Positions 31,608 through 39,456 of a stretch of 64,000 bases of DNA are shown here, one piece after another; positions within the stretch are counted from its first letter, which is position 1, and the number at the start of each line of letters is the position of its first letter. The stretch covers positions 11,564-75,563 of the forward strand of contig JANRKO010000031.1 in the NCBI GenBank assembly GCA_033763455.1, written 5' to 3'. This DNA is from Polyangiaceae bacterium. Its GTDB lineage: Bacteria > Myxococcota_A > Polyangia > Polyangiales > Polyangiaceae. The position numbers were made by a program, and so were the translations under genes. The notes beneath the pieces are model-generated. The model saw only the letters and a list, made by a program, of their open reading frames with translations. It made no database searches and had not been told where the DNA came from.

Positions 31608-31932
31608 GGTTTATAGCTCCAAGATGAACGCGACTCGTGAGGAAGGCGGACCCGAATGCAGACACGCGGGCCTTCCTCGACCTTGGCCAATGCTAGCGCG
31701 CCCACCGCCCCGCCACCCACCACTTCAGCCGAAAATCGGCGACTCGAAGCCCACTTTCGCTCTCGAAGCGGATCCGTTGGGGGGCAAGCGCGGCCTGTTA
31801 CGGAAGTCCATGCGCCCCGTACGGCAGCAAAGCGTTTACCCGCCCGAGGGCTTCGAGCATTTAGCACTCCCCTGCGCGGCCAGTTAGCGGTACTTTCCGG
31901 GCCTTAAGCGGCTTTTTTTGAGCGAGGAGAAA

Positions 31933-33081
31933 ATGGCGGATTCAAAAACGGTAGTTCTGGTTGCTGACGACGAGCCGAGCACGCTCGCTATGGTCTCTGC
32001 GCACTTGCGAGGCAAAGGTTTTCGTGTCCTCGAGGCGACTGACGGCGATCAGGCTTGGGAGCTCGCGCACGAACACCTGCCGCACCTGGTGGTACTCGAT
32101 GTGATGATGCCGGGCATGAGTGGGTGGGAGGTCTGCAAGAAGATCCGCGAAGCCGTCTCGCTCGCCCACGCAGGCGTTATCATGTTGACTGGTATCGGCG
32201 ACGCGCTCAACGAAATGACCTCGCCCCTTTATGGTGCAGATGCCTACGTCGACAAGCCTTTTGAATTCGCCGATCTCGATCGCAAGATCGACGAGACGCT
32301 CGCACGTCGCCGCGAGGGTGCACTCGGCCGCGCTGATTTTGACGACGACAGCGAAAGCACTGGGCCCGCTTCAACGGGGCCTGGGCTTGCCAAGGCCAAA
32401 AGCCCCAAACGAAGTGTGCGCTTGAAGAAAGCAGCAGCCACGCAAACGGAGCTCGCGTTCGTGAGTGTGCTCAGTGCTTCAACCCCTGAGAAGCTAGAGC
32501 AGCCAGCCGCCAAAAAGCCCACGAGTGAGCCCAAAGTGGCCAAGAAATCCGCGCCCAGCGCGAAAGCTAAGCCCGCAAAGCCTGTGGCCGAAAAACCTGT
32601 GGCGAACGCGAAGCCTGCCGCCAAAGCTGCCAAGTCACCAGCGAACGCGAAGCCTGCTGCCAAAGCTGCTAAGTCAGCAGCGAACGCGAAGCCTGCTGCC
32701 AAAGCTGCTAAGCCCGTAGCTAAAGCTGCGAAGAAGCCTGCTGCCAAAGCTGCTAAGCCCGTAGCTAAAGCTGCGAAGAAGCCTGCTGCCAAAGCTGCTA
32801 AGCCTGTTGCGAAAGCTAAGCCCGTAGCTAAAGCTGCGAAGAAGCCTGCTGCCAAAGCTGCTAAGCCCGTGGCGAAAGCTAAACCCGTGGCAAAAGCTGC
32901 TAAGCCTGTAGCTAAGGCTGCGAAGAAGCCTGCCGCCAAAGCTGCGAAGCCTGTTGCGAAAGCTAAGCCTGCTACCAAGGCTGCGAAGGGGCCCGTCGCT
33001 CAGAGAGGTGCCGCTAAAGCGCCCCCCAAGGCAGCCAAGCCGACGAAAAAGCCCGGCAAGAAATCCAACAAACGCGGCTGA
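31933..33081 (+). CDS. Response-regulator receiver domain with a histone H1/AlgP-like KPAAKAA tail
   Basis: ADDE, LDVMMPGMSG, MLT, KPF; about 190 aa of K/A/P repeats; GAGGAG RBS. Confidence 0.9.
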   Translation: MADSKTVVLVADDEPSTLAMVSAHLRGKGFRVLEATDGDQAWELAHEHLPHLVVLDVMMPGMSGWEVCKKIREAVSLAHAGVIMLTGIGDALNEMTSPLYGADAYVDKPFEFADLDRKIDETLARRREGALGRADFDDDSESTGPASTGPGLAKAKSPKRSVRLKKAAATQTELAFVSVLSASTPEKLEQPAAKKPTSEPKVAKKSAPSAKAKPAKPVAEKPVANAKPAAKAAKSPANAKPAAKAAKSAANAKPAAKAAKPVAKAAKKPAAKAAKPVAKAAKKPAAKAAKPVAKAKPVAKAAKKPAAKAAKPVAKAKPVAKAAKPVAKAAKKPAAKAAKPVAKAKPATKAAKGPVAQRGAAKAPPKAAKPTKKPGKKSNKRG

Positions 33082-34030: not shown

Positions 34031-34273
34031 ATGCCCAAGGCGAAGGTAGCTATCACGTTGGAACGCTCTACATTGGAGCGTTTAGACCGGCTGGTGGAAA
34101 GGGCGCGGTTCCTCAACCGTAGCCAGGCGGTCGAGATCGCGGTGGAAGAGAAACTCGCGCGGTTAGAGCGAAGTCGGCTCGCCGAAGAATGTGCCAAGCT
34201 CGATCCTACGGAAGAGCGGGCTCTCGCCAATTTGGGTTGGGAAGCAGACGGTGAAGCGTGGCCGGAATACTGA
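34031..34273 (+). CDS. Ribbon-helix-helix (CopG-type) antitoxin
   Basis: KVAITL..LERLDRLV..NRSQAVEIAV; acidic C-terminus; overlaps the toxin gene. Confidence 0.88.
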   Translation: MPKAKVAITLERSTLERLDRLVERARFLNRSQAVEIAVEEKLARLERSRLAEECAKLDPTEERALANLGWEADGEAWPEY

Positions 34274-34596
34274 GGGGCGAGCTGCGATGGGCAGACCTTG
34301 ATCCGACGCGTGGGCGTGAACAATCAGGTCTTCGGCCCGTGCTGATCTTGAGTCATGACGTTTTCAACGCGCGCTCGGGGACCGTTATCGCAATGGCTCT
34401 TACGAGCCAGCCTCAGCGTGCCGGGTTTCCTTTGACGCTGGAGCCGACGAGCTCGAAGCTAAAGAAGCCATCGTGGTTGAAGATCAGCCAGATCCGTACA
34501 CTCTCCGTGGAACGTATCGGGAAACGGCTGGGGCGACTGTCTGCGGAGGAGCTCAGCCAAGCCGTCGAAGGGCTCAATGAGATCATCGGCGCATGA
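34258..34596 (+). CDS. mazF: PemK/MazF family toxin
   Basis: RGELRWADLDPTRGREQSGLRPVLILS, LTSQ, SQIRTLSVERI. Confidence 0.93.
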   Translation: MAGILRGELRWADLDPTRGREQSGLRPVLILSHDVFNARSGTVIAMALTSQPQRAGFPLTLEPTSSKLKKPSWLKISQIRTLSVERIGKRLGRLSAEELSQAVEGLNEIIGA

Positions 34597-36891: not shown

Positions 36892-38085
36892 TCAGTGTTC
36901 CTTGGCGTCGACCCTTGTGGTGGCAATCTTTCGAATGTCGTCGATCCCGTACCGGAGCGCAGCGATGCGTTCGAGTCCGAAGCCCGCGCCGAGAGCGGTT
37001 CGTCTAGCGGTTGCGCCAAGCGCCTGCAGCACCCACGGAGCGTATTCGCCCAGGGCGATCACTTCGGACCAATCGTCTTTCTCGCGCACGTCGATGCTGA
37101 AGGCACGGCTGCACATTGGGTAGGACGTTGGCGAGACACGCACCTCGCGGCCTGGCAGCACGTTATCTAGCGCTTTCAAGAGGCGTCCCGCGAGCCAGAA
37201 ACCGTCGATCGTGTCTTTGTCGTCGATCGCGAAGAGCTCGAGCTGGTGGAACGCTTCGAGATGCGTCGCGCTTTCTTTCTCCTTGCGATAGACCTTGCCA
37301 GACGCCCACAACCGCTGCGGCGAACCGTTGAGTTTGATCGTTGTCAACAGCGGTAGCGTCAGGTCGTAGCGCAACACGTGCTCGCCAGAGATGCGTTGCA
37401 GCGCTGATCGCTCGATGTAAACGGCGTCTCCACCAAGCGCTTTTTCCGTTGCGTCGAGGTCGAGGTCTTCAGGTACCTCGACACGCGTGAAACCAGGGAA
37501 TGCTTCGTTGATCGCCGCGAGAGTCAGCGCCACCGGATTTCCTGCGATGTCGCTGAGGCGTGGCCGCGCGAGCAGCTCGATGATACTAGTCGGCAAGTCG
37601 CCGGGGATTTTTAGATCTCGTTGCTCTTCCATTTCTATTTCCTTTCGCAGCTTCTCCCGGATACGCTGCAAACGTTTGCGTTCCGTGGCGGACCCGATTT
37701 GTAGACCACCGTAGTAGTGCGCTTCGCAAAGTTGGCGTTCTTCGCGACTGAGTGTCAGCAGTGCGCGAGACAGAAGGCGTTGCTGCGCCTCCGTCCACCG
37801 CGTTTCGTCCTCGTCGAGGAATGGCGGCGTTTCGGCGTCATGGAAATCGACCCACTGCGCACGGCTGCGTTTCTTGCGGTTGAGCGCAGTCGTTACGACG
37901 ATGCGGCGCAGCCAGCCTGGAAAGGCGCGATCCTCCTGGAGCTGCGCAAGGCGGCGAAACGCCGTGGCGTACGCGTCCTGAACGACATCGCGGGCATCAC
38001 TCTCGCGGCGCACGATACGCCACGCAACCGCATACGCCATTGCGTAAGTGGCACGTACGTGCGTTTCGAAATCCGCGAGCTCCAT
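36892..38085 (-). CDS. ECF sigma factor fused to a class II aaRS (PheRS-alpha-like) catalytic domain
   Basis: Sigma2: DARDVVQDAY..AFPGWLRRIV; shortened sigma4; motif 2 GKVYRKE..ATHLEAFHQLE; motif 3 GAGFGLERIAALRYGIDDIR. Confidence 0.9.
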   Translation of the reverse strand: MELADFETHVRATYAMAYAVAWRIVRRESDARDVVQDAYATAFRRLAQLQEDRAFPGWLRRIVVTTALNRKKRSRAQWVDFHDAETPPFLDEDETRWTEAQQRLLSRALLTLSREERQLCEAHYYGGLQIGSATERKRLQRIREKLRKEIEMEEQRDLKIPGDLPTSIIELLARPRLSDIAGNPVALTLAAINEAFPGFTRVEVPEDLDLDATEKALGGDAVYIERSALQRISGEHVLRYDLTLPLLTTIKLNGSPQRLWASGKVYRKEKESATHLEAFHQLELFAIDDKDTIDGFWLAGRLLKALDNVLPGREVRVSPTSYPMCSRAFSIDVREKDDWSEVIALGEYAPWVLQALGATARRTALGAGFGLERIAALRYGIDDIRKIATTRVDAKEH

Positions 38086-38119
38086 GCCCTAAGGACACAA
38101 GCTCCGGCTCAGTGTGACA
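38086..38119 (-). promoter_or_regulatory. Putative ECF-type promoter TGTCACA-N15-TGTC, probably leaderless
   Basis: TGTCACA at 38119-38113, TGTC at 38097-38094, 8 nt to the ATG, no good RBS. Confidence 0.55.
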
Positions 38120-38292
38120 ATCTTTTTCGGACCCGATAGCTGCAGCGCCATCGAAACCCCGCAGGCAATCCCGAGCTTACATTGCTCCAACTTGCACCCG
38201 GGAGCCGAGTCGAGCTAGCGACAGTCCGACCAAAATGAAGTGCACTTCGGAATAGTCTTGACTATTTTGAAGTGTGATTCATTATAGTCAAG

Positions 38293-39456
38293 GTGAAGAG
38301 GCAGCAGGAATCAGCGCTGAGGGCAGATTTGGCCAAGAAGCTAGTGCTCTTGGCCGGGCCACGCCAAGTTGGAAAAACAACCCTCTCCCGGTCCTTGAGT
38401 CCCCACCACTCCTATCTGAACTACGATAGTTCTGAGGATCGGAGGTTGCTCACAGCCAAGGAGTGGGATCGTGACGTTTCGCTCGTGATCTTTGACGAAC
38501 TCCACAAGATGCGAAAATGGAAAACTTGGCTCAAAGGTATCTATGACACTGAAGGGATCCCCCCGGGGATCCTGGTTACCGGTTCCGCGCACCTTGAGGT
38601 ATTCCGTCGCGGGGGCGACTCGTTGGCAGGTCGCTACTTCCTTCACCGTTTGCATCCATTTACCGTTCGTGAGCTTGGGCGACAGTTCGAGGCAGAGGAT
38701 GCACTAGAGCGCATCCTCACGGTTGGAGGGTTTCCCGAGCCTTTCCTGAATGGGGACGAACAATATGCCCGGCGCTGGCGAAGAAGCCATCTGGACGTGA
38801 TTCTGCGGCAGGATCTGCTGGATCTAGAGAAGGTGCGAGAAATTCGAAGCATCGAGGTTCTGGTCGAGTTGCTGCTCCTGCGAGTAGGCTCGACGGTATC
38901 ATTGAGTTCACTCGCACGGGACTTGCAGACGTCAGCACACACTGTAAAGCATTGGCTACAGATCCTCGAAAGCCTGTACGTCCTATTTCCCGTTCGTCCG
39001 TACCATCACAACATCGCGCGAAGCCTGCTCAAGGAATCAAAGTACTACTTCTACGACACTGGCGCGGTAGCTGACGCCGGGGCGGACCCGGGTGCGGTGC
39101 TTGAAAATGCTGTTGCGTGCGCGCTCCTTCGGGAACTTCACCTTGCCGAAGATCTCACCGGGAAAAAGGCGCAACTCTGCTTTCTGCGCGACAAAGAGAA
39201 GCGCGAAGTAGACTTTCTCCCAGTGCTCGATAAGAAGCCGCGTGAGCTTGTGGAGGTGAAGCTCAATGATGCAACTTTCTCGAAATCATTGCTCTATTTT
39301 CAAGATTTGTTGCCTACGGTGCCCGCAAGGCAGGTGGTAGGCGGCCTCAAGCAAGCCAAGGGCAGGGCGGAGCGCAACGCGCGTATGGTGCCGGCCGCCA
39401 AGTACCTGGAGGCACTTTCTTTTGTTTCGCCCAAGCTCCCCGCAACGTCACCGTAG
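38293..39456 (+). CDS. AAA_14/DUF4143 ATP-binding protein
   Basis: GPRQVGKT, FDELHK, VTGSA, DSLAGR, GGFPEP, KYYFYDTG, EVDF..VEVK. Confidence 0.93.
   Translation: MKRQQESALRADLAKKLVLLAGPRQVGKTTLSRSLSPHHSYLNYDSSEDRRLLTAKEWDRDVSLVIFDELHKMRKWKTWLKGIYDTEGIPPGILVTGSAHLEVFRRGGDSLAGRYFLHRLHPFTVRELGRQFEAEDALERILTVGGFPEPFLNGDEQYARRWRRSHLDVILRQDLLDLEKVREIRSIEVLVELLLLRVGSTVSLSSLARDLQTSAHTVKHWLQILESLYVLFPVRPYHHNIARSLLKESKYYFYDTGAVADAGADPGAVLENAVACALLRELHLAEDLTGKKAQLCFLRDKEKREVDFLPVLDKKPRELVEVKLNDATFSKSLLYFQDLLPTVPARQVVGGLKQAKGRAERNARMVPAAKYLEALSFVSPKLPATSP

Follow-up and report, generated by a model that had tools for sequence, protein, structure and literature searches.

Why should an RNA polymerase sigma factor carry the catalytic core of an aminoacyl-tRNA synthetase in the same chain, and what might that core do there? 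The question is raised by a gene at 36892..38085 on the minus strand of the stretch of Polyangiaceae DNA analysed here (64,000 nucleotides, hereafter the window). A preliminary description, made from the sequence alone, had taken it for an ECF sigma factor fused to a synthetase-like domain within a single uninterrupted frame of 397 aa, and this stands: the frame is open from end to end, every motif quoted in that description is found in the translation (P0001), and Pfam places Sigma70_r2 and tRNA-synt_2d in the one chain. Extended ECF sigma factors are known, although the signals they answer to mostly are not, and few active sites in biology are better understood than the one that serves as the extension here. 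Since the active site is known and both the promoter and the catalytic mutants to use are defined, ligand and mechanism can be tested directly.

A conserved, patchily distributed family

The fusion gene has a divergently oriented AAA_14/DUF4143 ATPase gene on one side and, downstream, a gene for a PD40 beta-propeller protein (Pfam); as had been observed, neither an anti-sigma gene nor pheT adjoins it. Canonical pheS (contig C49) and pheT (contig C74) are present in the same genome, and the fusion is an additional PheS-type copy beside the genome's own pheS. The gene that follows that pheS (L186, G000:C49:33636-37574) is a primary-sigma-like open reading frame and not pheT, which sits on a separate contig (L200, G000:C74). 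Elsewhere in the window, overlapping inverted repeats at 38228-38292, with 15-nt arms that are 87% complementary and sigma70-like sites on both strands, lie just before the AAA_14/DUF4143 gene (38293-39456) and look like an operator. An RHH antitoxin and a PemK/MazF-like toxin form a pair at 34031-34596 (plus strand), and the frame at 31918-33081 (plus strand) has a receiver-like N-terminus and, after it, a long tail of Ala/Lys/Pro repeats that resembles histone-H1-like proteins.

Misassembly, which the preliminary description had allowed for along with a fusion confined to one genome, and chance are excluded as explanations because 117 of the best 120 matches carry both PF04542 and PF01409, and the fusion is confirmed as a real conserved family. 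When 50%-identity representatives were searched with a profile, full-length fusions were recovered down to 20-28% identity, and the ESM Atlas holds the architecture as automatic clusters of 57, 92 and 152 members. The fusion was located at at least 71 genome loci, in hosts that include Acidobacteriota and comprise Polyangiaceae, other Myxococcota, Vicinamibacterales, Bryobacterales, Steroidobacteraceae and one planctomycete. Its distribution is patchy: it occurs in 6 of 300 other genomes from the family of the source genome and in 0 of 3 from its genus, and in 3 of another 150 genomes that belong to the same order as G021; another 400 genomes, from the phylum to which G025 belongs, gave one full-length copy among the 150 matches listed. 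A metagenome scan gave two loci only, and no DNA for the lineage of the relatives P0002 and P0003 discussed below.

In a quick unrooted tree a branch with a support of 100 separates all 44 fused cores from 29 PheS sequences, which is consistent with a single capture of the PheS core. The clade of the query is coherent in the sigma tree (19 fusion rows, SH-aLRT 90), and a divergent clade is intermixed with sigma factors fused to SecA, GNAT, HEAT, ankyrin, FliA-like and T2SSF domains. When sigma and core trees of 59 loci were compared (FastTree), 15/16 and 16/17 strong splits were common to both with no strong conflict, which supports the view that sigma and core co-evolve. Median dN/dS for the 17 pairs with dS below 0.6 is 0.18 for sigma and 0.16 for the core; over all 179 pairs, where saturation in these high-GC genes has probably raised the values, it is 0.24 and 0.38.

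Several relatives depart from the standard arrangement. Sister ECF sigma factors are fused to SecA (L118:661-2757), to a second, FliA-like sigma (L126:667-2097), to T2SSF (L141:1486-2715) or to GNAT (L119:1486-2679), and P0179 has three domains, with a GNAT at the C-terminus in addition to sigma and the PheS core. One genome, G690, holds two copies (L147 and L153), one of them without most of sigma2, and frameshifted or split fusion copies are found in several MAGs (L056, L057, L059, L065, L067, L070 and L071).

The synthetase core and its pocket

The PheS-alpha-derived class II catalytic core spans residues 181-392 (36910..37545; this and all further features of the gene are on the minus strand), an assignment based on a PF01409 (tRNA-synt_2d) match at residues 222-393 (E = 6.4e-26) and on fold comparison. 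The AlphaFold2 model of P0001 (pLDDT 81.4, pTM 0.67) has PheRS alpha as its best Foldseek match, and VIA-align superimposes 210 residues on E. coli PheS (6oz5_A) with a Z of 23.5 and an rmsd of 2.4, bearing out the PheRS-alpha-type fold that had been proposed; mitochondrial PheRS (3cmq, Z 22.7) is level with it to within 1 Z. An origin from a monomeric mitochondrial or CPR-type PheRS, prompted by a structure row of the Atlas, found no support, as bacterial PheS scores higher. The NCBIfam pheS model TIGR00468 gives 88.9 bits, below its cut-off of 237.45. The tRNA-binding coiled coil of PheS (PF02912) has no match in P0001, where sigma takes its place, and the absence of an anticodon-binding domain was likewise seen correctly, since PF03147 (FDX-ACB) is unmatched. 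Because both of these parts are missing, tRNA, one of the ligands initially considered, is unlikely to be what is sensed. No longer fusions of the core were found among 7035 candidates, which counts as weak evidence.

Class II motifs 1 to 3 occur in the order first described and could be placed by alignment, from which the E. coli numbering is also taken. Conservation was scored over 116 close full-length relatives, four of the best 120 having been left out for length. Motif 1 (NPV...PE) lies at residues 183-206 (37468..37539). The RYDLT amino-group loop (37357..37371) contains D241, equivalent to E. coli Q169 and present in 116/116, and T243, equivalent to S171; motif 2 (37237..37299) contributes R267, F279, Q281 and E283 (E. 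coli R195, F206, Q208 and E210; 116, 116, 116 and 115 of 116), and motif 3 (36967..36996) contributes R373 (R301), found in 116/116. Also invariant are G346 and G368, E341 (E268) is present in 115/116, and mean domain identity across the set is 62%. The E. coli equivalents of these conserved core residues have established roles in ATP and amino-group binding. Judged by this alignment, the ATP and amino-group site is retained and the ligand-site residues are strongly constrained. In the divergent clade (33 sequences), the catalytic residues are eroded, with the R195 position kept in 28/33, F206 in 26/33 and Q208 in 24/33.

The side-chain pocket differs from that of PheS. Four positions that are Gln (Q174, 101/101), Phe (F248, 101/101), Phe (F250, 99/101) and Ala (A294, 101/101) in PheS controls are L246 in 113/116, Y322 in 115/116, M324 in 114/116 and G366, in motif 3, in 114/116 fusions. 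The second and third belong to a rebuilt side-chain loop, YPMC (37111..37122), which aligns with E. coli F248-P-F250-T251 and in which T251 is replaced by Cys. The next position, E252, is Glu in 100/101 controls and variable in the fusions; in PheS it is the alpha-beta Mg ligand. PheS has a C-terminal FFENDxRF tail, which is missing from all 12 fusion tails compared. Within the query's clade the pocket is fixed in a non-Phe state. The A294G change in PheS widens the pocket and relaxes specificity for para-substituted Phe (PMC3275996; papers given by PMC accession are cited here from partial text). Tyrosine was considered as a ligand and set aside: the pocket is made wider by the Gly, but a polar contact is lost with Q174L and nothing further favours Tyr.

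Two copies of residues 160-392 were submitted to ESMFold2, and the core homodimer scored 0.74 against 0.01 for the best control; 20/30 solved pairs and 1/23 solved monomers reach that mark, counts that are only roughly valid here as our own alignment was used. Runs agreed on 100% of contacts, with pLDDT of at least 91. The predicted surface consists of helix 294-307 and strand 312-319 (37129..37206), and its core is conserved (G300 in 100/116, L303 in 103/116, Phe or Trp at 296 in 111/116); motif 1 lies outside the modelled interface and is left free. PheRS cores contact each other through a four-helix bundle (PMC3275996, partial text), and the score may stem from likeness to solved PheRS interfaces. 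With that qualification, the model supports homodimer formation by the synthetase core.

The sigma domains

The sigma2 domain occupies residues 10-75 (37861..38058; PF04542, E = 4.6e-9), and P0001 scores 43.9 bits with TIGR02937 (NCBIfam), above the ECF superfamily cut-off of 42.9. The alignment shows sigma2 to be without an N-terminal helix of about 15 residues found in most relatives, and P0001, P0002 and P0003 all begin about 15 residues later than most. Of the three Pfam matches that had been predicted, Sigma70_r2 and tRNA-synt_2d were obtained and Sigma70_r4 was not, because nine residues are deleted from the first helix of the sigma4.2 HTH; Sigma70_r4_2 is matched in all four relatives scanned (E from 5.8e-6 to 0.096). 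The sigma4 region lies at residues 99-155 (37621..37791) according to the alignment, and the deletion, which removes the first HTH helix, follows G126 (37705-37710). It is found in 3/116 relatives (P0001 to P0003), the other 113 being of full length. A public contig crosses the deletion site with 15 of 226 letters different and no gap, so that misassembly does not account for the deletion; public contigs cover the fusion gene in short pieces only.

Might P0001 then be a weakened or -35-independent sigma factor, maybe drifting towards a non-transcriptional role? Such an account of this one allele is compatible with any of the functions weighed below, and the rarity of the deletion and the absent Sigma70_r4 match both speak for it. 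Against it, P0002 (80% identity) and P0003 (78% identity) share the deletion, which must therefore be old; the recognition-helix residues R136, K137, R138, Q140 and R141 are retained; and a correctly spaced -35/-10 pair remains the best site in the genome. We regard a weakened sigma as possible and hold to it only tentatively.

Promoter and candidate targets

A predicted autoregulatory ECF promoter, GTCACA-N15-TGTCCT, lies just upstream of the gene at 38092..38118 (-35 element at 38118-38113, -10 element at 38097-38092). The ATG is 8 nt past the TGTC, and to judge from this spacing the mRNA is probably leaderless. The motif GTCACR-N15-TGTC is found upstream of the fusion in 67 of the 70 loci with an N-terminus (L006 and L060 were dropped), compared with 41 of 2541 background windows; the gap is 15 nt in 66 loci and 16 nt in one, L049 has a one-base variant, and the family consensus is GTCACR-N15-TGTCYT. 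The site at the gene itself also has the highest PWM score in the genome, 21.6. Autoregulation is a property of about half of ECF sigma factors (PMC7776599, partial text). For one fusion of the divergent clade (L116:1492-2745), with an eroded motif 2, the 130 nt upstream contain no promoter of the GTCAC type. The locus L051 (genome G908) is unpublished, and its depositors must agree before it can be published; it contributes a single row to the 67/70 count, to the PWM, to the tally over 50 genomes and to the dN/dS set, and none of the conclusions depends on it.

The search for other targets gave little. A PWM scan of the source genome returned 8 matches above 13 bits, compared with 9-16 when spacers were shifted, and none besides the gene's own site rose above background. 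The exact pattern gave 48 matches in 25 genomes (22 self and 26 other; 18 with the reversed-pattern control) and 68 in 50 genomes (44 self and 24 other; control 22), although two entries in the larger set look like one genome. Thus the 25- and 50-genome scans found no family-wide target other than the fusion gene itself, and this near-absence leaves room for the synthetase domain to be the output itself. The preliminary description had noted neither the promoter nor the scarcity of further targets, nor the sigma4 deletion.

One candidate target does recur, a gene for an MDMPI_N/DinB-fold protein in some Acidobacteria. Among eight homologues from genomes that carry the fusion, four have a site above 24 bits, two of these being seeds, and a fifth has a degenerate site; only 4 of 1500 background windows exceed 20 bits. 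The site is also present at 1/4 homologues from genomes in which no fusion was found (G866, fragmented), so that another ECF sigma factor could read it. The MDMPI query had no match in the source genome, which is 93.67% complete. Two further candidates, DinB-like (1/19) and PepE (1/15), were discarded, as the site occurs only in their seed loci. At L106 and L107 a high-scoring promoter lies right after the end of the same upstream gene, followed by a PepE fragment in L106 and by no co-oriented gene in L107; these promoters are possibly leftovers after gene loss.

Neighbouring genes likewise point to no constant partner. Across 72 loci no neighbour, anti-sigma genes included, is conserved family-wide, and the downstream gene is co-oriented in 35/67 loci and not conserved. 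An ABC permease (MacB/FtsX) was considered as an operon partner and rejected; it lies near 19 loci, but its orientation and distance vary. The neighbourhood survey found no acceptor or carrier protein that co-occurs with the fusion.

What the fused core might do

We favour, with a probability only a little above one half, the reading that the fusion is a one-component, autoregulated ECF sigma factor whose PheS-derived domain would serve as a cytoplasmic ligand sensor. A one-component design with no anti-sigma factor had already been suggested, and agrees with the lack of a conserved anti-sigma neighbour in the 72 loci. The domain would bind ATP or an adenylate together with a hydrophobic amino-acid-like molecule, probably not plain Phe and perhaps a bulkier or para-substituted analogue, and either occupancy or adenylate formation would shift the synthetase domain or its dimer. 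In the AlphaFold2 model the sigma4 recognition helix (residues 133-155) is long and runs directly into the synthetase core, and it could pass such a shift on, releasing sigma for RNA polymerase. The holoenzyme would then fire GTCACR-N15-TGTCYT promoters, that of its own gene providing positive feedback and, in some hosts, that of a recruited small-molecule-modifying gene such as the one for the MDMPI/DinB protein. The fusion would thus be an accessory, patchily spread stress or detoxification switch rather than a tRNA ligase.

Ligand sensing is supported by the invariant catalytic set, the clade-fixed pocket changes, the wider pocket that A294G brings, low dN/dS, congruent trees, the promoter in 67/70 loci, the precedent of ECF41 described below, the absence of a conserved anti-sigma neighbour and the homodimer model at 0.74. 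It is weakened by the fact that a sensor needs an output and the non-self matches barely exceed the control, by the erosion of catalytic residues in the divergent clade, by the truncated sigma4 HTH of this allele, and by the patchiness of the MDMPI site (4/8 with two seeds, and also in G866) and the failure of DinB-like and PepE to generalise. If true, it would link amino-acid or adenylate chemistry directly to the activity of a sigma factor in the largely uncultured Myxococcota and Acidobacteriota. The fusion is also of practical interest, as a PheS pocket for non-canonical amino acids shaped by natural evolution and as the scaffold of a one-gene biosensor. A bolder and somewhat doubtful proposal is an adenylate-based switch, in which the core would use ATP to adenylate a non-canonical amino acid, or would trap an adenylate antibiotic, and the bound adenylate would both clear the compound and activate the sigma that drives further synthesis of the fusion; if true, this would be a single-gene loop that senses, amplifies and detoxifies.

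The main rival to ligand sensing makes the core itself the useful product, which would adenylate, sequester or destroy a noxious amino-acid analogue or an adenylate antibiotic directed against aaRSs, while sigma would mainly make more fusion when substrate appears. That the gene itself is the only family-wide promoter target, that the downstream gene is unconserved and co-oriented in just 35/67 loci, and that the full catalytic set is kept would all fit, as would the precedent of ECF41, which targets one enzyme gene next door (PMC3426412, partial text), the enzyme here being fused instead. Yet some genomes have an extra target in the MDMPI site, no acceptor or carrier protein co-occurs, PheS alpha or alpha2 in isolation fails to aminoacylate tRNA (PMC3275996, partial text), and a 1:1 fusion of a sigma factor to a detoxifying enzyme would seem an inefficient design; on balance we think an effector core unlikely. 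Could partner binding, and not a free amino acid, be what switches sigma? The core would then be an integrated housekeeping copy that detects a protein or inhibitor directed against PheRS, or that docks on host PheT. Sister sigma factors of the divergent clade do bear housekeeping-like domains (SecA, T2SSF, FliA-like sigma, GNAT, HEAT and ankyrin), and motif 1 is conserved yet free in the dimer model, but a decoy should mimic PheS, and what is found is a pocket fixed in a non-Phe state, a variable E252 position and the loss of the FFENDxRF tail from the 12 fusion tails compared, so that a decoy seems quite improbable.

Sensing of uncharged tRNA, after the manner of the HisRS-like domain of GCN2, a kinase activated by deacylated tRNA (PMC7373986, partial text), strikes us as very unlikely: the class II core with motif 2 intact would allow it, and the sigma4 helices occupy the place of the PheS coiled coil, but PheRS binds tRNA through two modules, the coiled coil of alpha and B8 of beta (PMC3275996, partial text), both of which are missing, and the fixed pocket changes indicate a small ligand. 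Least credible of all is a PheS fragment caught by chance and riding along with no regulatory role. Fortuitous capture has been proposed for the ECF extensions of Planctomycetes (Pinto and da Fonseca 2020, PMC7671368, partial text), clade II sigma factors exchange extensions and some cores are degenerate; set against these are the grouping of 44/44 fused cores apart from 29 PheS sequences across the branch of support 100, the invariance of the active site, a core dN/dS of 0.16 and the congruent trees.

Comparison with known systems

The preliminary description knew of no characterised example, and our search of the open-access literature likewise found no publication on this architecture. The searchable text of PMC7826278 and PMC8999054 contains no ECF group with an aaRS extension. 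The word tRNA is absent from the available main texts of these two papers and of PMC7671368, and from the supplement of the last; in the partial text of the PMC7826278 supplement all six places with 'tRNA synthetase' refer to neighbouring genes, and 'sigma' is absent from the available text of the aaRS papers PMC5388404 and PMC7373986. As a form of the one-component ECF design, the fusion is apparently undescribed.

ECF41 factors of B. licheniformis and R. sphaeroides combine a fused C-terminal regulatory domain with one target only and a promoter of the form TGTCACA-n16-CGTC (Wecke et al. 2012, PMC3426412, partial text), and the fusion resembles them in having no anti-sigma factor, a fused and putatively regulatory C-terminal domain, a -35 element like TGTCACA and what may be a one-transcript regulon. 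The ECF41 extension is SnoaL-like, whereas that of the fusion is a PheS catalytic core (PF01409). The promoters appear to differ as well, the fusion having a -10 element of TGTCYT at a fixed 15-nt gap after GTCACR, with TGTC in 65/65 aligned sites picked by a pattern that also admits CGTC and GGTC, and although ECF41 targets an adjacent COE gene, the fusion has no conserved COE neighbour in 72 loci. Other extended groups, which share the one-component architecture, carry TPR (ECF42), Cys-rich (ECF238, ECF287 and ECF288), TM (ECF263) or DUF1835 (ECF264) extensions (PMC7826278 and PMC8999054, partial texts). The promoter predicted for ECF288, TGTCACA/TGTCTAAT, resembles that of the fusion, which differs from the Cys-rich groups in having no Cys-rich tail.

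With PheS the fusion shares the fold, motifs 1-3 and the ATP-binding residues. It differs in having sigma where PheS has its coiled coil, in the loss of the C-terminal tail, in the lack of a nearby pheT, and in a pocket altered by Q174L, F248Y, F250M, T251C and A294G with E252 not kept; monomeric mitochondrial-type PheRS has a C-terminal FDX-ACB domain, and the fusion is without PF03147. NF051887, the 'PheS-related mystery ligase SrmL', is another PheS-related paralogue of unknown function and matches P0001 with 81 bits against a cut-off of 300, covering profile positions 97-230 of 349; no paper on SrmL could be recognised among the literature matches listed. Class II cores do have regulatory roles elsewhere, as in the HisRS-like domain of GCN2. 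Other aaRS cores reused outside aminoacylation include HisZ and the leucine sensor LeuRS (PMC7373986, partial text). Such aaRS paralogues act on an enzyme, a kinase or mTORC1, whereas the output of the fused core would be the sigma factor of its own polypeptide.
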